DNA of 56,742 nt, filler included, from Basidioascus undulatus (Eukaryota): assembly GCA_000826855.1 (NCBI GenBank). It is 4 parts of 4 records of this genome, joined end to end, with 100 filler letters (N's around TTAATTAATTAA, not from the genome) between each part and the next. Parts side by side here need not be neighbours in the genome. Positions count along the whole stretch, not along the records: positions 15,901 to 29,464 come from JTLS01000803.1; 3 more parts are not named here. One strand, written 5' to 3'. Both the position numbers and the translations under genes were made by a program. Within the stretch, counting starts at the first letter, position 1, and each line of letters opens with the position of its first letter. Below the pieces are notes generated by a model. That model searched no databases. It worked only from the letters and a program-made list of their open reading frames with translations, and was not told the origin of the DNA. Positions 15,901 through 29,464 of the stretch are shown one piece after another.

Positions 15901-16829
15901 TTGCCTGTCCTGTCTGGGTTGAGGTATTTTAGTGGCGGCATGTTGAAGGCATGTTGGTTGGAAGCGAGTGCGGTGGAGAAACGAATGCGTCGAGCAAGTA
16001 CAATCCGAGAATTGTGTAAGCGTGATGAGATGAGGGTGAGCGAGTGAGCGTCGAGTCGGCCCCAGTCCGTCTCCTATCGTCTTTTATATCTTCGGCCAGC
16101 CTGCGCCAAGCAGAGCAACTTGCGTTCGAAATAGGAAAAGGAAGCGGTGCACCTCTTGAGTCCCACAAGTCTTTATGTTGTGCCCAGGTTCCGCAGTACT
16201 CGATCAGATCGCGCTCAGGATGGTTGAGTCCGTGCTGGGTCAGGGCGGTCGGCTGGCGCGACGCGCGCGCCAAGGGACGTTGTTCAAACGCGCCTCCGAC
16301 GCGGCTGTGCGAGCGGCGCGGTCGGCTGTGCTGCTGAGCACCTACGTTCTCGGGATTTTTCAACTTCGATTGCCGTTAACAACCGGTTTGAATTGATTAT
16401 TGAGGACTTAATGAGTCGAAGGAAAGATAGGAAGTGCAGGAATATGCGGAATGAACTTCGCGCGGACCTGGCAAGAGAATGAAGTGCGTTCATGTATAGT
16501 GGACGACCAACCCGTTTATCCAGCACTATAAATAGTATGAAAGGAGAGAACTGTTAAGCACTCACTACATCAAACTACCAGCAAGACGACAAGAGTCATC
16601 CGCTACAACAGCCCAACGTTGCACTTGTGAGGCAGACATCGAATCACAGTGTAGCCTTGACTGGCTGTCGTATATACAGTTTCTTTGTTTAAAGCGGGCA
16701 CTAATAGTTTGGTGGGTACATCAGCGACTCTAAATCAACATGTCGTTGCCCGGTCGCGAGTCCCTGAAGGTACGGCTGCTCACGGCTGGGTTGTACCTTG
16801 GACCACGTCCAGTGCGGAGCGATTGACAC

Positions 16830-18060
16830 GGTCTTTTGGAGTTATTCTTTGTTGGGTTTAGGGAGCACGCCTCCTTCGTAAAGCAGAAGAAATATCGGAG
16901 CGACTCAGTGGGCAGCGCTACAATGCACCACCACTGGCAGCATCGGACTTCGCACCCCACAAGCACCCGCACTGCTCGAATGGGTTTCGTCCCAACTGGT
17001 GATTTTGCGAAAGTAAACAAAAGTCATGGTCGAAATGCTCGTTTTTTTCTTTCTTTTTGGCGCGCTGCCGACTTCGCTTGAAGGATCGACTACACCGAAT
17101 GCCGTTCGGAGGCTTCGGCTGTATTTCCATGCCGCTCAACAACCTGAACAGCGATGTCGTACTTAGCCGCAAAATCAAACAGGTATAGAATGAATAGATA
17201 CCTGACACTCGTCTTGCATAACGAAGCTGGGGCCGTGGGAGTCGGTTCATGAACATCGCGATTCTCCAGTGGCAGTTGCGTGTTAGCAATCACCTCCGCA
17301 TTGGTAAATGCCGTTTATCATTGTAAGATACCTTAGTCCTTATTCCATGAAGAGCAGGAGGCACCCGCGCCAATCCAAAAGAGAAAGGGTCCCCATCAAC
17401 AGGCTGGGCATGATGCGTAGCAGGACATGGCTTGTTCTCAGTGCAAGCTTGCTTAGGCACCCTGAGCCTGATATAAGGTGTTTACTTGTCCAAAGAAGGC
17501 CCTATTCTCCTAGAACATGGGAGGAAATTGAGTGTTCAGGCGTCTTCAGTACTGTTTAACAGCCCGAAAGCATCTAGGGGACCGGCTGGTGTCTGCTTAT
17601 GGTAGAGAAATGCGCCCAGGTGCATGACCGACCATCTAAAGAGCAGTGTGATATCGTTCCATTACCAACTTTACACGACTGCCTCCGAAGCCTATCTTAG
17701 AGCCATTTCACATATTGTCCATCGAATAAAATGAGCAGAACAGGCTCAGTAGTTAGCATGGTGTCTGGAGGTGTAGAAGGACGCTCTGTCCTAATGCTCA
17801 ACGTCTCGACTCCGACAGTATGCACACCCTGCCACTTTTCTCTCCAGGACACTGAGGTTCCTTGTAAGCATACTGTGGCAACCCACACACACATACTCAA
17901 TTTATATACTTAATATTTGTTCCCTCCCTCCGCTATTGCCATGAAGGCCGGGGTCTGTCTCGAAAAAGTCGATGGGGACGAGATGAGTGAGAGCAAAGCG
18001 ATGCGGCTCGCGTCTTTGGGCGTCCAGTGGGGTCAGACCAAAGGGACTGTCCCGAGTAAA
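16830..18060 (+). mobile_element. Degenerate Mutator-like (MULE) transposase relic
   Basis: AT-richer, stop-riddled region. Fragments occur in MULE order: FVP..FAKVNKS..NARFFLSFWRAA (cf. IxPLAFAxVxxExxxxWxWFL), SEASAVFP, a SWIM-like VCTPCHFSLQDTEVPCKHTVA (about 17818-17880), then PPSAIAMKAG. No TIRs identified. Confidence 0.45.
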
Positions 18061-19191
18061 TTAACAGGGTTGTATTCGATAAAAATTCAAGGATCATGCT
18101 GAGCATTGCACATACACGCACTGATTTGGCACGCAGGTTGTGCCACCTTGGAACGCAAGACCACCATATCCATGCATGGATTACTCCTAATTCTATACAG
18201 AATACTTCGACAGAAAAAAGGAAATGCTTTGAAGGCATACCAGCGGAGAGTATTTGATAGTTTCACGGACAGCAGGGGGGGGGGACGTCTGTGGCCCACA
18301 GTCGATACAGGCCGCCGTCGCGGCACCCATTTCCTTGAATGTGGTTCAAAGATCTTGATTAGTATATTTTTGACATTTGTAAAATCGTTTATTAGCAGTC
18401 GGCCAACTGAGCTGCTAGAGCGACCTGCACAAGACCTGCAGTCTTCCCCGTGAGCCGACGAAACCCGTCGGCAACCTGCCTCCCCTGCTCCTCGTGATCC
18501 CGGCGACTGCGCTGCGCTACCGCATGCAAGGTATATCAAAGCACGTGGGCCGAGCGCTCGGTCTTCTCTTCCTCAGTGCTCCGGAAGTGCAGAACATACA
18601 AGCCCTTTCGACTTGCCCTGCCTTATTCGGAAGTCGAAGTGAAAAACTGAAGGTCGAAAGACACCGAAGGATCACATGAAACTGTCACAAATGACGGTCG
18701 TCGTGTCGGATCGCTGTCGATGTTGTACGTTTGTATTCGTTACAGCGGCCTGTACTTCGCGACGCTGGAGGAGTTCGTCGGTTCCCTGGGCAGAAGCCGA
18801 TGGAGCTCTGCGCAGCTTTTGAGGCCTCGACGTCGCCAGTTATATCACTGAGGAGCGTCTGGGGGGCGGAGTGCTCGCCCCCAGGGCCTCACAAAATGTT
18901 CTCGAAGGCGGTACAAAAGTTGTTGGTCCCCCGGCCGGAGTGATGCGTTGCGGAAGGCGGCGGCGATCAGGGCGGAGAAAATGACGTGTGTGTGGCACGA
19001 CAAGTTTAAACCGAGCAGCCGGTACACACTCCAACGCGACGCGGCTGGCAATCCGGCACGCAGATCCAAGCAGAAGGCGCCTCTCTTTTGCTCCTCTTCC
19101 TCTCTCACCATCACCACCACGCCTGAGACCGTGATCTCTATTCTCTAACGCACTCCCCCTCCCATACCGGTAGTCAGGCCGCTATTCACCA

Positions 19192-19269
19192 CACCGTACC
19201 ACCGTACCACCGTACCACCGTACCACCGTACCACCGTACCACCGTACCACCGTACCACCGTACCACCGT
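19192..19269 (+). repeat. Perfect 8-bp tandem repeat (CACCGTAC)x9 plus a partial unit
   Basis: Read directly from the sequence. Ends about 45 nt upstream of the HAD gene ATG. Confidence 0.97.
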
Positions 19270-19314
19270 CCTCACCCCCCCGTTCTCGTTCCCACCCCGA
19301 CCCACACCCACACA

Positions 19315-21062
19315 ATGTCCGACAAGCTCTACGACGACGTTCCCGGCGTCGAGGCCAGGATCAAGGAGCTTCAGAAAAAGGAGGCTCCGCTCCCCAACTT
19401 TGGCCCGGCGTCCTTCGAAATCGACGCGGTCCTCTTCGGTGGGTCCCTGCCTTCCCGCTCCATGTTCTCCTGGCACGGAAGGTCTGACTGGGCTTGCTTT
19501 TGCTTTAAATCCGCGTAGACATGGACGGAACGAGCGTGAAACCCCCTCTTTTTGGTACATTGTTCAAGCGATCGCTTACCTGGACATTCGGCCAACAGGC
19601 TCGTAAATTCGATCGCCGCGGTTGAGGCGGCGTGGGGACAGGTTGCAGAGGAGATTGGGCAGGACCGTGACGAAGTTATCAAGGTATGCTTTCATACGGA
19701 ATGGTTGCAGCCGATCCCGTAAGAGACCCGCTCAACGTCTTCGTTTTCCATCCCTTCAGGCTACGCACGGCCGTCGCGCGTCCGACAACCTGAAGAAGGT
19801 ACGCTCCCCTTTGCTTGCGTTCCCGTAGAGATGACCTGATCGCTGCCAATCGTGTCCTTCCCTCAGTTCAAGCCTTTTCTGAAGGAGCACGAGATCGACA
19901 GGGAGGTGCAGAAGTTCGAGCAGGTGCGCTCCCGTCTCAGTGCCCGCCTTGTGGCGCTGTTCAGCCCCGTTTAACCATTTCCGAATCTCCACAGAGCATT
20001 CTCGACCACGCGGATGCGTATGAGAACAAGCGTCGTTCTCGCTCCAACTCGCGCACCTCCTCCCAAGGGTCCACGCCCGCCTCCTCCCGCCGCGGGTCCG
20101 CCGCGTCCTCGCGCCGCCCCTCCTTCCAGCAGCAGCAGGCCGCGGCGCTCTTCGGATCCTTCACGCCGCTCGACAAGTCAGCCAACTCGTCCAGGGCGAA
20201 CCTCTCGTCGAGCGAGCTGACGCGCGAGCTCGCGCGCGCAAAGCTCACGGCCGCGACGGACGAGGCGGAGATTGGCACGGAGAGCAGCGCGGTCGACTTG
20301 GAGGAAGACGAGGACGACCTGAGCGACCTCGGCGCGGATATGAGCGTCCAGATCTTGCCGGGCGTGCGCAGCCTCATCGACTCGCTGCCTGAGGGCCGGT
20401 ACGCCGTCGCCACGTCCGGCGCCAGGACGTACGCGTATGGCGCGATGGAGCGCGCTGGGATCGTCCCTCCCAAGGTACGTTCCTGCTCTCTTTCTTGCCC
20501 TCCTCCTCTTGTCTCCCCCGTGGACCGATATTACCTCTCGCTTCCCTTCCCTAAGATCACCATCACCGCCGAGGACCCGCGCCTGGGCAACGGCAAGCCG
20601 TACCCGGATCCGTTCGTGCTCGCGGCGCGGGAGCTCGGGTTTGACCCTAAGAACTGCATGGTTGTCGAGGACTCGCCGTCCGGCATCATCGCCGGTGTCG
20701 TCTCGGGCGCGACGACCCTCGCCGTCTGCACGTCCCACACGCAGGACCAGATCGAGCGCTGCGGGCCGCATCATCTCATTCAAAATCTTGAGGCTGTTTG
20801 GTACGTTTTTTGGTTCTTTCTTGCTCTCGGAGTGTCTGAAGGCTGACATCGTGCATGGTTGGGATCCCACAGGGTCGAGGTCCTCCCCTCCGGCAAGCTC
20901 AAGGTCAACATCAACCCGAGCAGGATCACGTCCGAGATCAAGCACGACGCGATGACGGACGTCGGGCCGGACTTCAAGCCGTCCTGGGCTCGGAAGGAGG
21001 ACAAGAAGGAGGCCAAGGCGAAGGCCGAGGCGGAGAAGCAGGCCGCGGAGGCGACGGCGTGA
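19315..21062 (+). CDS. HAD-superfamily phosphatase, glycerol-3-phosphate / 2-deoxyglucose-6-phosphate phosphatase (Gpp/Dog) family
   Basis: Spliced product AVLFDMDGTLVNSIAAVEAAW...THGRR...ILPGVRSLIDSL...YAVATSG...GKPYPDPF...VVEDSPSGIIAG (HAD motifs I-IV). Motif I lies on a 13-nt exon (19519-19531). Confidence 0.93.
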
Positions 21063-21415
21063 ACTAGCACGAACTCGAACTCGACCTTACCCTCTCCTCT
21101 CTTCTCCTCTCCTTCCGCCCCCGCTCCTCCCACTCCCTCTTGAACCTTTACATGTCCCTTCGCCCGCAATCCCACCGCACACCCTTCCCCGCCAATTGAG
21201 GGTCCCTCCCCCCTCCCGTGAACCCTTCCTTTCATGCCCCTGTCCCACCCTGACTGCGTTAGAATTCTGTGGCCCCGGACTGCAGTGTTCCTTTCACTGA
21301 ACTGAATATACCTGACTAGAACCAGACATTTCTGAAACACTCCATGCAACAACACAAGCAATAGACTTTCGTTCACTCAATCCGTCATCATGCATACTCG
21401 CGTCGCGTATCAAGA

Positions 21416-23042
21416 CTACTCCAGCCGGTGGACGACCTTCTGCGCGGAAATCTTGCCCTCACGGAGCAGGCGCATCCCCTCCCAGACGCCGTCCAGACCG
21501 TCCTCGACAAGCCTAGTCCGGTTGGGCCGGACAAGGCCCTGCCCGAGCAGCGCCGGGACCTTCTTGAGGAACGAGGCCTGGTACTCGCGATCGGAAGGGG
21601 ACGCAGGGAAGTGCTGCTTGCCGCCGAAGGTGAACTCCTGCAAGCCAGACAGGATCAGTTAGCAGGCGGTACTGAATAACATGAATCCATCATATGCACC
21701 TTGCCAAGGGACGTGTACAGAAGGGTGAAGATAATCTGCACGTCCGGGCGCTGGGAAGCCGCCTCCTCAGATTGCGCGAGGATGACACACAGCTGAAAAG
21801 CGAAGCGATAAACATCAGAAGACGCGCGGGTATAGAGTCCACTGTACGTACCTTGCCGCCGTTCTTGCCAAAGGCCTTGACGCTGATCGGCTGGCTCGCA
21901 CCCTCCGAGATCGTGTCCATGCCGGACCGAATCGAGTCGTCCGTCACCTTGCGGATGTCCTCGGAGACGGTGGGCGAGCGGTACTGCGTTTTCGCATCGT
22001 CAGGAGATTTCAATGTGGATTGGTTTATTATAGAAACGAGAAAGCCAGCTCGGCACCAAGCGCCTTCACGAGTTCGTGGTTGTGCGGGCTGGCGGTGGTC
22101 ACAACGCGGTAACCGGCGGCCTTAGCTAACTGAATAGCATATTGCCCGACCGACGTGGTTCCGCCGTAGACGAGGACCTGCAGCGCCAGGGATTAATTCA
22201 GTTCGAACAAGCTCAAATGATGCGTCTGTGGCAGAAAGCGTACCCATTCAGGCTTCTCGACCTTTGCGGGCGGCTCAACCAGACCGATGCGGTGGAACAA
22301 GCCCTGTCCGAATCAAGACTGTGAACTAACATACTAGAGATGCAAACGAAACTCCAACATTTCGCGCACCTGAGCAGCAGTCCAGGAACTGCAGCCCATC
22401 GAGGCAGCCTCGGGGAAGTCCAGGTTCTCAGGGACCTTCAACAGCAGGTCGCTGTCGACCTTCGCGTACTCGGCAAAGGCACCCCAGTCGACGTAGTTGC
22501 CGCCGTGGACCTAAGAGAAGTGGAGAAGATCCTACTGTAAGGTTTAACGAGGAACAGCGACATACGAATGCCATGACGCGGTCGCCGACTTTCACGTCGC
22601 CCTTTTGAGGGTCCGGGCCGACCTTCTCGACAACGCCAGCAAGGTCACAGTTGCCAGGCTATCGAAAGGGAAAATATGTCAGAGGATGCCGTGATAAGAT
22701 CCGTTTGCGCATCTTACCTTGCTGAGGTACGCGACGTGCTTCCACTAGCATCCGGACAAGACTCAGTCACGCAGTACAGCGCTGCAATACGGGACGGTAC
22801 GTACGTCGGTCGGGTTCTGTAGACCAAGACGTCAGCTTCCCCTACAATTGAATATTTCTTACTCACCTGCGCAATGCCCTTCACCTTCACCAGAACCTCC
22901 CCCTGGCCCAGCTCGGGAACGGGGACATCCTTCACCTCCACCTTCTGACCCTGTTGACATAGAGGTTGGTCAGGTCTTTACCTTTGAGGACATCCAGGCG
23001 ACTTACTTCGACTACAATAACAGCTTTTATGCTAAGTGGCAT
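21416..23042 (-). CDS. MDR-family zinc-independent enoyl-reductase-like oxidoreductase (LovC/ToxD-like); possibly disrupted
   Basis: MPLSIKAVIV..EVLVKVKGIAQNPTDWKH, VKVGDRV, GAFAEYAKVD, VLVYGGTTSVGQYAIQLAKAAGYRVVTTASPHNHELVKALGA, GKISAQKVV. 12-nt exon NPTD at 22805-22816. One junction (21984-22037) is out of phase. Confidence 0.85.
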
Positions 23043-23635
23043 GCAGTTAATGGGGAAACAAACGCGTATGATGGGTAGAGACCAAGCGACGACCGAACGG
23101 TCTTGACTGTCTTCCCTCACTTGACGTCAGCCTCCACTTGCGATGCGGCGTGTGTGGGCGGCCGCCTGGGTCTCCTCTTCCTTCCAATTTGGACGCGAAG
23201 ATATCAGATCTCAGCAGAAACTGCAGGGTGCGTCCATTCCCTATCATTCATGTCGAACAGCGTTGCAGCGGTGCTATAGGACGAGCGAAAGCGGTACAGT
23301 GCAATAATCGGGCATCAGTTGCCGGACGATTCGCTGTGATCGTGTGTGTCTCTGCGCTTGCACAACCGGCACAAGGACCACTTTGCAAGGATCAGTACAA
23401 GAATTTACGACGGTATAGTACCCATTAAAAACACGTAGGCGTGCGTATGTACGTAGCTTGAGGGGCGAAAGGCGGTCGCGTTATTGTCGGAATTGCTGAG
23501 ACACTGCGCTTTCCGCGTTCGTTCCGAGGAACGGACGCGACTTCAACCTGGCACGATGGCCTGCACCGTGCTGCACCCCTTCCTTCACCTCTCCACGACC
23601 GTCGCATCCTCCATCACACACCTCAATCCCGCATC

Positions 23636-24365
23636 ATGATAGAGTCCGCGCCGGTGCAGCCCGATCAATTCAACCTCAACTTCGCCCAGCTCCCAGTCGA
23701 GCAGCTGGACTCGATTCGGGTCAAGCTCGAGCAGATCACCCACGCGCTGACCGACTTCATGGTGGCTGTGGAGGGCGGGCCCAATGCTGCGAGGGAGATG
23801 CTGTCCTGGTGCGCCTGATACTTCATAGTCTGCTTGCTTGGGCGTCTGAGTGCTGAAGGAAGCTCTACCCAGGCCGGAGACCCTCTCCAAAATGAACCTC
23901 CTTCTCTCCCACACGCACATCCTCACGTCAACCCTCACTGCTTCCCATACCTCCGTCCCAAACCCAAACAATGCGCTACCCCTTCGTGTTCTTCATCCCA
24001 CCTCCGACATCGACGCCGCCCTAGATCACGTCGTCGGCATGCTGATGCGGACCAAAGCCGTCCCGGCAATCGAAGATGCCGAGGCGGAGATCTTGGCCGC
24101 GCAGCCAGAGGACGAGAGCCTACAAAGCGTCGAAGAACGGCGCAGGGTGCACGACTCGCGGGCGGCCAAGGCGGAGGAGATTGTGGACCGGCTGCGGGCA
24201 CAGTATGAGTGGAGGGCGAGGGTCGACGTGGGTGACAACGGGGAGGAGGGCGACGCGATAAAGGTGGATGGTGAGGAGGAGGGTGAGGGTAAGAAGGGCG
24301 CTGGGATCGACGCCCTCGCCAAGTTCATGAGCACGGGGCTGGGTGGAGAGGCCTTCTTGAGATGA
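23636..24365 (+). CDS. MED8: Mediator complex subunit 8
   Basis: LPVEQLDSIRVKLEQI...SWPETLSKMNLLLSHT...VLHP...GMLMRTKAVPAIEDAE...ALAKFMSTG match the fungal Med8 pattern. One intron (about 23809-23872). Confidence 0.8.
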
Positions 24366-24678
24366 ATGGTCACTTATGACGTTCACGAGATGCAAGGTGT
24401 GCATGCCGTTCCCGCACTTTCGATGTGCCTGGTACAACTACGGATCGGAACAGTGTTCTATAAGTACATTGTGAACTTGGGCGAAAGCCTCGAGTGTTGG
24501 GTGCGCCTTATCTTGCCGTGCGTTGTGACAGCTCGAGGCGGTTATGGCGGACATGTTTTGCAGATCAGAATACACTGATTCGCTCGCCATGCAGATAATC
24601 GGAACAAGCTGTCTCATGGTGGATCAAATCAAGCATCAAAGTCCCTTCAAACGTCACAAACACTCTCAAACTCATCGC

Positions 24679-26698
24679 TCAAAGCTTCGCCTTGCTGCTC
24701 GCCACGCCGTGCCTCTGCGCGATCTCATGCGCGAGCTTCTTCACCTGCTGGGCATGCTCGCGCAGCGCGCCTGCGCGCTTGAGCTCGGCCTTGCCGACCT
24801 GGGCGACGTGCACCTCGTCCGGCCCGTCTGCGAGCCGGAGCGTGCGGTTGCCCGCGAAGAGCGCAGCGAGCGGGGTGTCCTGCAGGAAAGGAGAATTGGA
24901 AGACATGGTTGTTAGCCACTGAAACAACGAGCAGAAAAAACGGAGGGAGAGTAAACGGACAGAGGAGAGACCCTCGGCGCCGTGCATCTGCATGGCGCGG
25001 TCGATCACATTGCTAACGGTTTTGGGGACGAAGTACTTGGCGATACCGATTTCCTACAAGGCGTGGAGGTAAGTTGGAAAGTCTAGAAAAGCGGAATGAG
25101 AGCAGGGCGGACCTTCATGGCGCCCTTTGCACGGACACGGTCGATCTGGATGGCAGCAGAAAGCACGAGAAGGCGGCAGGCATCGATCTCCGCGCGGGAG
25201 TGGCCGAGATCAGCGACCACGGAGCCTATTTATCGAAAGAGGAACGTTCAGTTCAAAGGTCTAGGAGAGATCAAGATCGCAAGAAGGCTGAACTTACCGT
25301 GCTCAAACAGCTGCTTGCCAAACGTCTTCCTCTCCGGCGCAGTGACGCGCATGAGCGCGTGCTCCAGCGCGCGCTCGGCGACGCCGATAGCGCGCATGCA
25401 GTGGTGGATACGGCCCGGACCGAGACGGCCCTGGACGACCTCGAAGCCGCGACCCCAACCAGCGACGATGTTGGACTGCGGGACACGCACGTTGTCGTAG
25501 TGGACCTGGTAGTGGCCTTCAGGAGCGTCGTCGTAGCCAAGCCTGTTCGGAAAAGAGCATGCTGTGAGCAAGGCGCCTATCTTATTCACAAGAGCGAGAG
25601 TGAGACGGACACCGTGAGAGGACGGATGAGCTTAACACCGGGGTGGTTCGACGGAATCAGTACGATGGTGTGCGACTTGTGGCGGTCCGCGTTGGGCGAG
25701 AAGTCGTGCTTCCCGATGAGCTGTACACAGAAACAAAGCCCGGGCTCAGTAAAGGGTTAAGAGAGCAGATCGAACGGGAAGACACACGATGTGAATGCCA
25801 TTGCGCGGGTCGCCAGCGCCCGAGATCCACCACTTCATGCCGTTCCTGTAGGCAAAATGTCAGATGAAGGTCTTGAGCGAGGAAGATGATGCGAAAGGTA
25901 CGCACACAATCACATCGTCACCGTCCTTCCTGATCGACGTCTTCAGGTTCGTCGCGTCGGAAGAGGCAACTAGGAAACCAAGTCCCAACAGGTCAGCCTT
26001 TGCTCATCGAACGCACATGCATATCACACAACTCACCTCCATACTCGGTCATCGCGAATGAAGAGCGGATCTTGCCCTCAAGCAGCGGCACGAGCCACTT
26101 CTTCTTCTGCTCATCGGTACCGTAGCGGGCCAGGACCTCCATGTTGCCAGTGTCCCTATCGTGACAAGTTCAGGGCCAGGTCTAGAGTTTGAATCACCAG
26201 TCGGACTCACGGAGCAGAACAATTGCACGCCTCGGGCGCGACGCGAGGTGCGTGGCCCATGACCTCGCACATCACGGCGTACTGCACCGCGTCACAGACT
26301 CAGCTTGCAGATCTAAGCCAGGATACGGAGCACCCACTCACCTCAAGGTTGGTCAGATCCGTCCCAACATCCGGGTAGTGCTGCTTGCTCAGGAAGAGGT
26401 TCCACAGCCCACGCTTCTTTGCCTTGGCCTTGAGCTCCTCCATGACGGCGGGGTACGACTTCCAGCGCTTTGCCGGGTCGGTCGAGACCTGGGCGTGGAA
26501 CGTCTCCTCCGCAGGAATGCACTCATTCTGTCCAAACCCTCTGGATTAAGCTTTCTTATCACACAGCGATGGGAGGGAACGAATGCGGACCAGCACGAAG
26601 TCGATAACCTTGTCCAAGATCTCTCGCGCGTGCGGGCGGTAGTGCGGCTCGATGAGCGCCCAAGCCGCGGGAGAGACGAGTGCAGGAGCGGACGACAT
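24679..26698 (-). CDS. Acyl-CoA dehydrogenase (ACAD10/11-like) with C-terminal PTS1 (AKL)
   Basis: [93 protein letters not shown], ending SSKAKL*. Confidence 0.95.
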
Positions 26699-27370
26699 TT
26701 CGATTTGGGTGGTCGGTTAGGATGGATGAGGGGAATATCGAGAGGGGAAGATGGACGAGCGAAGCATCAAGTATCGACCAGGTCAGCTGGTGGCGAAGGG
26801 AGAGCCGGATGCCGGCCGCGAAGAGCCCGAGCGGTGCGGCGGCCCGAGATCGATCGCAGCTGTTACAGCAGGAGCAGTGATTGACATCTTGCACCTTCGC
26901 AAGTATAAAATCACCCGGTAAAGTGTTTGACCGGTTCTCAATGCTACCAATGCGGGAGGAGCTAGAGGAGAGAGAACTGGTTGGGGGTCGGTGGGAATTG
27001 GGCGCGGGTAGGAGCTCTGTCGGGATCGTTCGCAGATCAGACTGCAGCAATCACATTCAAGTCTCTCATTCAAGAAACACCCATGTAGAGGCGAAGAGTT
27101 TGGAATTCCACATAAGGGAGAGGGTACTAAAGTAATGTTGAAAAGAACTGGACAGAGCGCCAGCGCTCCTGCGCTCCTGTGAGCTTTCTCCGATAGTGCT
27201 TTCAGCAGCGAATAATCCAAATCTTTAAGGCGACCATTGGTGTAAATATTCTTTTAGCCACACCTCAATTTCCATTTCTGTTCAACATACGCATACCTGG
27301 ATGCACTTTTTGTCGAGACAAGGGGCACTCGCACAATGAAAATGTCACAGCTGCAACTGCGCAACCTGGC

Positions 27371-29194
27371 CTATTCCTCCGCCGGTTCCACGCTCTGCGG
27401 AAACCTGAAAACATTCCCCGGATCCAATACCCTCTTCACCTCCCTCAACCGTCCAAGGTTACCCGCAAAGTACACCCGCGGCCATTCCCCAGGCCGGAGA
27501 CGAGGATCGCAGTAGTTGGCGTACGCGGCCTGCAGATGCGGGGTAATGCTCCGCTGCATCCCATCGACGAAAGCGAAGAACTCCTTCTCTGGTATGGTGG
27601 GGTCGGAGTTTGAGGTGTTTGCGTAGAGTTGAAAGCCGAAGAGCACGGAGCGGTGCGGGAAGGCGGTTGAGGTTGACGGGACGGAGTGGATTGCACCGTT
27701 GTACGCTGTAGCGAGAGCGATATCAGCAACTGTCCAAGAGAGTACATTGAGAAACAAAAAGCTGATGTACGGTCTGACATGGCGAACCAGTCGAGTTTGG
27801 TAGACGTCCCCTCTTTGAACAAGTAGGTGAAATAGGACTCGAGCGTTGGCAATGGCAGCGGCGCGTCGATGAAGAGCGACTACGGGCGCGCCAATAATTT
27901 CAGAATTACCCTATGACTCGTCCTTGAATCTCACTCAGTCATCCCGCACCTTGGCATAAAATCGGTCATGCTCCACCGCAGGCTCGAGCGTAGCCTCCAG
28001 CGCCGCGAGCCCCTCATGCCACTCCGAGTGGAAGTCATACCCCTTGGGCAGAGCATCTAGCAGGGGCCGGATGACCGAAATGAGGTCTTCTTGGTCGCCG
28101 TCGAAGTGGTGCCCGTAGATCTGCAGACAGCATGGCAATGTAAGCCGACAGACCGGACACAGAAGACGGTCCTATGGCACCTTCAAATTGACACCACCGT
28201 CGCCGTCGGGAGAAAGTACCACCACCGCGTAGAGGCGTCCGGGTGGATCGGTGTACATAAAGCGCTGGAAGGCGTCGAAGCTGCGAGAAGAGGCGGATGG
28301 CTGGTTAGCGATGCTGCGCAGCCGACAGCACCGCGACGTACGCGGAAACGAGTGTTTCTTTAGGATGAGAATTGAAAAATATGGAGAACGAAATCATCGT
28401 TTCTGGAGCTGGTACAGTGTCGAACGTCCATGCCGTGACGATGCCGAAAGACGGCGCGGCACCTCGCAGCGCCTGCTCATAAGCGTTCAGCGAGGATGGA
28501 TGCCACCCTTGTATGTCAATTCAAGCATACCCAAAAGAGGTCGGAATGCTCTTTCTTGGAAGCGTGGACGATCTCGCCGCTCGCCAGTACGACTTCAGCG
28601 CCGACGATGCGGTCGAGTATGAGGCCGTGCATGCGCGACAGAGGGCCGTATCCTCCGAATGATGCATGTCCGCCTATTCCAACACTTTAAAATAGTACAG
28701 AGTGAGCTTCACAAGGCCAAAGCGGACAAATGGTCGAGAGAGAAGACGCACTGCGGACAAGTCCCCGTCGGCACCGCCCTCCTCCCCCGCTCCCACAGTC
28801 TTCTCACCACGGCGCCCAGACGGTTCCCCGTCCCAACCACCGCCCTCCCCTCCTCCAGAACCTCAATCCCATCGAGTCTTTCCAGCGAAATCACGAGCGC
28901 CCCGTCGGAGAGTCCGTAGCCCGCGTACGAGTGTCCGCCCGAGCGGGCGACGACGGGCACGCCTGCGCGCGCGGCGGCGCGGACGGCAGAGGCGACGCCG
29001 TGGGGTGTGGGGGGGTAGAAGATTGCGAGAGGCTGGGGGGAGAGGAGGAGGTTGTATGGGGATGAGGCGCGGGGGAAGGAGGGCGAGCTGGGGAGGACGA
29101 GCTTGCTCAAAGGTGACGTTAGGCTAGTGGCTGCGAGTGCGGCTGCGAGGGCCTCGGTAGCGTCCGAGTCCGTATTCGACTCTGGCAAGCTCAT
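27371..29194 (-). CDS. FAD-linked oxidoreductase, berberine-bridge-enzyme / oligosaccharide-oxidase (AA7-like) family
   Basis: ARSGGHSYAGYG (covalent FAD His), GTCPQVGIGGH (Cys), DLFWALRGAAPSFGIVT, and the C-terminal BBE motif YANYCD...YFAGNLGRLREVKRVLDPGNVF. Confidence 0.92.
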
Positions 29195-29464
29195 GATTCG
29201 AAGCGCTCGAGATGTGATTGAGGGGTGGAGCAGAAAAGAGGACTGAAGTTCAGAGAGGACGAACAAGGGAAGATGATAACACGGCGATGACGACGTTTGG
29301 AGCACAACGATAGTAGGCTGGGCACGGTTAGCGTCGGCTATAGCGCACGTTCTCTCTGAATCCTTCTGCTGCAGCGTCGAGGATGAACATCGGAGTTCGT
29401 TATTAGGCAGCAGCATACCAAACTTGGGCATAACCCTCATAGTATCTCAAAAGCACTGACTGCC

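Follow-up and report, generated by a model that had tools for sequence, protein, structure and literature searches.

Gene structure at the locus

The window analysed here is the whole stretch of 56,742 nt (filler letters included) joined from four parts of the Basidioascus undulatus genome (assembly GCA_000826855.1), with positions 15,901–29,464 coming from record JTLS01000803.1. Within that part the plus strand carries a gene at 19315–21062 with eight exons, which we joined by script over a reading of 19000–21200: together they make up 1233 nt and code for a protein of 410 aa, starting with the ATG at 19315 and ending with the TGA at 21060–21062. Exon 1 (19315–19438) runs from the ATG to ...CTC TTC G, ends in phase 1, and is followed by intron 1 (19439–19518), which is 80 nt long, has the termini GTGGGT...TAG and contains a CTGAC branch-like motif. 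Exon 2 (19519–19531) is a microexon of 13 nt, ACATGGACGGAAC, which codes for (D)MDG(T), the nucleophile motif I of HAD enzymes. The intron behind it, intron 2 (19532–19598, 67 nt), runs from GAGCGT to CAACAG and has A for T at position +2 of its donor (19533); a CTTAC motif at 19575–19579 lies 20 nt ahead of its 3′ end. Exon 3 (19599–19683) opens with G CTC GTA AAT TCG (LVNSIAAVEAAWG...) and is conserved in orthologs; GCTCGTAAATTCG begins at 19599, directly after the CAACAG that ends at 19598.

Exons 4–8 lie on the same strand at 19760–19798, 19867–19923, 19995–20474, 20556–20800 and 20873–21062, separated by four GT-AG introns; this part of the layout is a model whose junctions are found in RNA contigs of a diverged sister copy of the gene (see below). 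The six introns other than intron 2 are all of the GT-AG type, 68–81 nt in length, and have the donors GTGGGT, GTATGC, GTACGC, GTGCGC, GTACGT and GTACGT. The sequence-only reading of this DNA had described the rest of the gene as intact, and we agree: the 410-aa frame is open, the six GT-AG introns are good, and intron 2 itself has a normal branch-like motif and acceptor. A 13-nt exon is likely to be missed by annotation pipelines, and its position should be useful to annotators.

Intron 6 (20475–20555, 81 nt) is in frame and stop-free, and its retention would add 27 residues with no truncation. At 20030–20330, exon 6 codes for about 100 residues of the cap region in which a Ser/Arg-rich stretch gives way to an acidic insert of low complexity (RRSRSNSRTSS..., EEDEDD); basidiomycete orthologs have an insert similar in kind, and yeast GPP1 is missing it. 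RRxS-like motifs in the insert suggest that the protein may be subject to phosphoregulation. Upstream of the gene, the plus strand at 19192–19269 is occupied by a tandem repeat of the octamer CACCGTAC (9.8 copies, period 8, 100% matches, 78 bp), which ends 46 nt 5′ of the ATG.

Protein family and likely function

Family profiles place the product among the HAD-IA phosphatases, in keeping with the HAD phosphatase named in the sequence-only reading. The translation of 19995–20798, that is, exons 6–7 read through the stop-free intron 6, matched PF00702 (1.1e-10; 42.7 bits against a cut-off of 26.4), PF13419 (7.1e-08) and PF13242 (3.2e-05), and TIGR01509 (HAD-SF-IA-v3) scored 48.8 bits against a cut-off of 29.4. 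Motifs II (S/T), III (K) and IV (acidic pair), encoded by exons 6 and 7, are intact as YAVATSG, GKPYPDP and VEDSPSG and agree with the orthologs by eye. A protein search returned 303 hits among 3363 candidates, none of them above 61% identity over part of the query; those with names are all basidiomycete ‘HAD-like’ proteins, and the best are an unnamed protein (54% identity) and one from Wallemia mellicola (56%). Placement in Pucciniomycotina, implied by the sequence-only reading, is at most tentative, the top hit with a name being that of Wallemia.

Nine of the ten orthologs fetched have [F/W]DMDGTL as a contiguous motif. In the tenth, P0001, FDM and DGTLVNS stand 21 residues apart, resembling a translated intron at another place. 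P0001 is a Wallemia-like gene model in which an apparent 63-nt intron between FDM and DGTLVNS is read through; a further basidiomycete lineage would therefore have this catalytic motif interrupted by an intron as well, at another point.

As for the substrate, the label of glycerol-3-phosphate phosphatase given to this gene earlier holds in part: yeast GPP1 is the nearest characterised relative, and the activity is a putative one, taken from that relationship. The solved structure of GPP1, 2qlt, is the top solved match of the Wallemia ortholog P0002 (6e-23, with the next at 2.8e-13), which is why we use ‘GPP-type’ as the nearest label; for exons 6–7 of the window it comes second (3.4e-08), behind a beta-phosphoglucomutase. 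The nearest NCBIfam model, the ‘sugar phosphatase’ NF008610, scored 125.3 bits, far under its cut-off of 282, and one ortholog is annotated as a 2-deoxyglucose-6-phosphate phosphatase.

The GA donor of intron 2

We paired each of 50 possible donor positions (19525–19574) with the acceptor at 19598, and the sole position that gave contiguous VLFDMDGTLVNS in the 410-aa open frame was 19532. The earlier proposal that FDMDGTLVNS needs an intron starting with GAGCGT at 19532 is therefore exact. The GC and GT dinucleotides nearby do cause frameshifts and early stops, as had also been stated: GC at 19534 leads to a stop at codon 48, and GT at 19536 and GT at 19555 both lead to a stop at codon 55. GT at 19562 keeps the frame, but with an intron of only 37 nt and 10 extra residues inside motif I. 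By our reading of the sequence, skipping of the microexon or retention of intron 2 would also bring in early stops.

The GT at 19536 deserves separate mention, since it was put forward as a competitor of the GA site four nucleotides upstream. This candidate donor (19536–19541, plus strand) reads GTGAAA, shifts the frame and leads to the stop at codon 55; unlike all six GT donors of the gene, it is without G at +5 and without T or C at +6. The missing G at +5 makes it a poor competitor. The GA donor itself has AAC on its exon side, i.e. C at −1 and no compensating G, and GCGT at +3 to +6: the site retains the intronic part of the genome’s usual donor, with no help from the exon side.

Three other explanations of the GA terminus were considered and rejected. 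A U12-type (minor) intron has the donor consensus /RTATCCTT, and the donor here, GAGCGTGA, does not fit it. Editing of the A at +2 would yield inosine, which is read as G, and hence GG rather than GU. Finally, no canonical alternative donor-acceptor pair preserves the frame. A search of the window against Rfam gave no match.

The claim that GTGCGT is a common donor in this genome stands only in so far as it is the top hexamer among the GT hits of our motif scan (17 of 54, with GTACGT next at 12), a crude scan of the window that does not discriminate between true and control donors. This motif scan passed 54 of 221 candidates for GT, 52 of 279 for GC, 45 of 287 for GA and 36 of 286 for GG, and a scan for introns that keep an open frame passed 55 of 234 for GT versus 59 of 349 for GA on the plus strand, and 58 of 241 versus 55 of 334 on the minus strand. 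Both scans fail to separate GT from the control dinucleotides and therefore say nothing on other GA introns or on an excess of GA in the window. As for introns of relatives, a degenerate pattern of microexon, gap and exon 3 had 0 matches in metagenome_contigs, and no relative’s intron was found there; a query with the exon 6 protein, made with the same aim, returned 403 pattern matches, none of which was confirmed.

The A at 19533 is present in genomic DNA

Four sequencing runs carrying the locus (X1–X4), none of them registered as RNA, were compared over 19000–21300. Run X1 is dated 2014 and may be the source data of the window’s assembly; X2 is dated 2025 and comes from another study, and the two are possibly from one strain. 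The Logan DNA contigs of X1 (depth 16.8) and X2 (depth 46) each contain 556 letters equal to the window at 19240–19795, with 0 differences and 0 gaps. The A at 19533 is thus confirmed in the DNA of two runs from two studies, and both the GA at the 5′ end and the AG at the 3′ end of intron 2 are present in genomic DNA. If the true base were T, a single change would restore GTGCGT, the commonest donor hexamer in our crude scan; but since contigs built independently from X1 and X2 match the window exactly, we regard a sequencing or assembly error at this base as very unlikely, indeed close to negligible.

A second, diverged copy of the locus

Runs X1 and X2 also hold a second version of the locus, at an equal DNA depth: 16.8 for the window copy versus 18 for the sister copy in X1, and 46 versus 42.2 in X2. 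The two copies differ by about 6–12% in the exons, and their introns are unalignable. The sister copy has 16 other letters in 19294–19460 and 25 in 19595–19795; between these, in place of 19461–19594 of the window, a stretch that spans the donor of intron 2, it has 137 letters that are too diverged to align. Further bubbles follow along the gene, with 12 differences in 193 letters. A DNA contig of 4.8 kb carries the sister copy. Its letters differ from the window’s at 19389 and 19629, among others, two positions that splicing brings to about 93 nt from each other, with the microexon between them. At 19208–19294, the region of the octamer repeat, the sister copy has 30 unrelated letters for the window’s 85, both in DNA and in a transcript contig of X3, and in the transcript of the sister copy this region is 5′ UTR.

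We examined 40 of the 74 differences between the copies. They fall in 37 codons, 29 of which are changed synonymously and 8 non-synonymously, which argues for purifying selection on both copies during most of the time since they separated. The two copies are thus old, and nothing in the sequence marks the window copy as an old pseudogene. They may be alleles, in a diploid that is very heterozygous, homeologs, in a hybrid, or old paralogs. With two versions of the locus at equal DNA depth, the organism would be a diploid or dikaryon of high heterozygosity, a hybrid, or the carrier of an old duplication. The contigs of the runs sum to about 34–35 million letters. The presence of two strongly diverged copies matters to anyone annotating this genome or mapping reads to it.

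A contig of 247 letters from the soil metagenome X4 covers 20138–20384 and differs from the window at 3 positions, at 2 of which it has the letter of the sister copy. Being nearly equal to the window, it points to a third, near-identical haplotype in the environmental sample.

Transcripts of the two copies

Run X3 comes from the same sample as X2 and bears the tool label ‘DNA?’. We used it here as cDNA-like because its contigs skip all seven introns. An X3 contig of 901 nt with a depth of 808.7 carries the letters of the sister copy (differing from the window at 13 letters of exon 1, 9 of exon 3 and 33 of exon 6) and joins 19438 | ACATGGACGGAAC | 19599, the 13 letters of the microexon being identical to those of the window. 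Intron 1 is absent from it, as is the intron on the other side of the microexon, and introns 3, 4 and 5 are likewise missing, with borders as in our model when shifts of 2–3 bases in the tool’s cut are allowed for. Intron 6 is missing from two further sister-copy contigs, with a summed depth of 683.8, and intron 7 from one with a depth of 789.3. These spliced contigs show that the sister copy does use the 13-nt microexon and each of the seven junctions; the microexon is a very short internal exon whose two junctions are both present in RNA. The exon and intron borders laid down beforehand from the DNA, those of the microexon included, therefore proved right.

In the window protein, motif I (DxDGT) becomes contiguous only through the GA donor join 19531^19599, and the corresponding join is the one seen in RNA of the sister copy. 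For the GA copy itself, the junction 19531^19599 was not seen among the X3 contigs, which drop rare variants, and the same goes for 19535^19599, the junction that use of the GT at 19536 would give. The X3 contigs have no cover over 19462–19538 and none of them contains intron 2 of the window, a hole in the cover that proves nothing.

Three X3 contigs do equal the window copy. One spans 20393–20474 at a depth of 57.6, and its ends are probably unitig branch points, at a difference between the copies and at the end of the exon. The second (20445–20582, depth 16.3) runs unspliced into intron 6. The third, 1694 letters at a depth of 102.6, equals the window from 20883 onwards and covers exon 8 and the 3′ UTR before running on for about 1.3 kb past 21300; transcription may read through here, or the neighbouring gene may have a transcript that overlaps. 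In this one run, the GA copy thus has an RNA depth of 57.6–102.6 versus about 680–810 for the sister copy, at a DNA depth of 1:1. Depth is a crude measure in contigs, and minor variants are lost from them, so that this roughly tenfold lower level is no more than a hint. Decay of mis-spliced RNA would account for it, and so would a weaker promoter or 5′ UTR; the octamer repeat difference may play a part in making the RNA of the two copies unequal.

A probable tolerated splice-site lesion or a possible productive GA-AG intron

We lean, with little confidence to spare, towards the view that the change of T to A at +2 is a lesion that weakens or kills the donor and is buffered by the sister copy. 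On this view, a basidiomycete HAD-IA phosphatase gene is present in two diverged copies, of which the window holds one, with DMDGT on a genuine 13-nt microexon; in the window copy, the donor behind that microexon would have changed from the genome’s usual GTGCGT to GAGCGT and would now be weak or dead. Intron retention, loss of the microexon or splicing at a wrong site would in that case affect most transcripts of the GA copy; each of these outcomes is predicted to lead to an early stop and hence to degradation of the transcript. Enzyme would come from the sister copy, whose splicing follows these borders exactly and which is dominant in the RNA. We infer that the low RNA of the GA copy is caused by the GA donor and that the lesion arose when a second copy was already present. 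Several observations speak against this reading: the copy is otherwise intact, both copies have mostly been under purifying selection since they separated, functional GA donors exist, and the low RNA may instead stem from the promoter or the 5′ UTR, where the 78-bp octamer repeat differs, with the Logan contig depths being crude in any case.

Some of these observations also count in favour of a productive GA-AG intron. Here U1 and U6 would read the GCGT at +3 to +6, the ancestral site would be cut, and an active enzyme would be made, perhaps at a lower yield. The gene is intact apart from +2, and the differences examined between the copies (29 synonymous versus 8 non-synonymous codons) indicate purifying selection. 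RNA of the window copy is present and at least partly spliced at intron 6 (57.6 versus 16.3 unspliced), and functional GA donors are documented for SYMRK of Trema (PMC10668435) and, as cited in PMC7072748, for FGFR. Against it stand the X3 contigs, in which no junction was seen for the GA copy and in which the RNA of this copy is at about one tenth of the sister’s, as well as the poor context of the donor with its C at −1. In addition, GA-AG introns are extremely rare (PMC10668435), and most annotated cases are without RNA support (PMC7072748). The presence of a redundant copy would also make a tolerated lesion the likelier origin of the GA: our own prior is that true GA-AG introns are far rarer than single-base hits on the donors of redundant copies. 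We therefore see a productive intron as a possible but doubtful outcome.

The sequence-only reading had gone further and proposed a switch: the GT at 19536 would be a rival of the weak GA donor, its product would be removed by nonsense-mediated decay, and the output of enzyme would respond to stress. Use of 19536 does bring in a stop at codon 55, upstream of five introns, and the low steady-state RNA of the GA copy is compatible with decay. The competition on which the switch depends is unsupported, however: GTGAAA is without G at +5, and 19535^19599 was not seen in the X3 contigs. Moreover, a switch acting on the GA copy would control little, because a well-expressed second copy supplies the enzyme. 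We consider such a switch highly improbable. On balance, a regulatory or functional role of the GA donor is less likely than a tolerated splice-site lesion.

What is new here is modest: the site either adds one more case to an intron type already known to be rare, or is an ordinary variant. Should the GA copy be mis-spliced, the change is a first-hit splice lesion of the ordinary kind, in a gene copy that is redundant. Should its splicing be correct, fungi would gain a rare case of a functional GA-AG intron, of interest for the recognition of 5′ splice sites: a natural intron of this type lying directly 3′ of a 13-nt microexon in which the HAD nucleophile motif is encoded. The sister copy would then serve as a built-in control, and the pair would form a compact system for studying how the spliceosome accepts A at +2.

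Comparison with known systems

At the protein level, the closest known systems are yeast GPP1/GPP2 and DOG1/DOG2 (2qlt), which share with the window protein the HAD-IA fold family and the DxDGT of motif I. Unlike yeast GPP1/GPP2, the window protein has 410 aa, with the insert of about 100 Ser/Arg- and acid-rich residues that is common to the basidiomycete orthologs.

At the donor, ordinary loss-of-function variants with T>A at +2 have the same base change at the same position; in the window, the alternatives all carry early stops. GA 5′ splice sites in the human FGFR1–3 genes were reportedly described by Brackenridge et al. in 2003, and the ‘dead-end’ in the title of that paper is said to refer to +2 U-to-A donors that stall at or before the second step in model introns. 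The FGFR1–3 sites are like the one described here in belonging to a U2-type GA-AG intron whose exact junction is needed for the reading frame. According to PMC7072748, use of the human FGFR GA donor, which is conserved among the genes, depends among others on a canonical site six nucleotides upstream; the window’s only nearby GT lies four nucleotides downstream.

How rare such introns are was rightly gauged by the sequence-only reading, which had called them very rare: according to PMC10668435, GA-AG makes up about 0.01% of the annotated introns in five plant genomes, and according to PMC7072748, only about 19–23% of annotated GA-AG sites across species have RNA-Seq support. Only two species depart from this picture. 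In Eurytemora affinis as well as Oikopleura dioica, as given in PMC7072748, GA-AG introns are abundant (thousands), the GA is preceded by a conserved AG and followed by an A, and the introns are possibly served by a variant U1. The window shares their GA-AG termini but has a single site, with AAC ahead of the GA.

The nearest analogue of a polymorphic GA donor is found in Trema orientalis, where a single-base GA allele of the donor of SYMRK intron 12 is reported to be fully functional (PMC10668435). A single-base change there makes a GA donor in one allele of a population, and the GA of the window copy may have arisen likewise. The ancestor in Trema was GC and function was established by complementation, whereas the ancestor at the B. 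undulatus locus is presumed to have been GT and its donor is known from the sequence.
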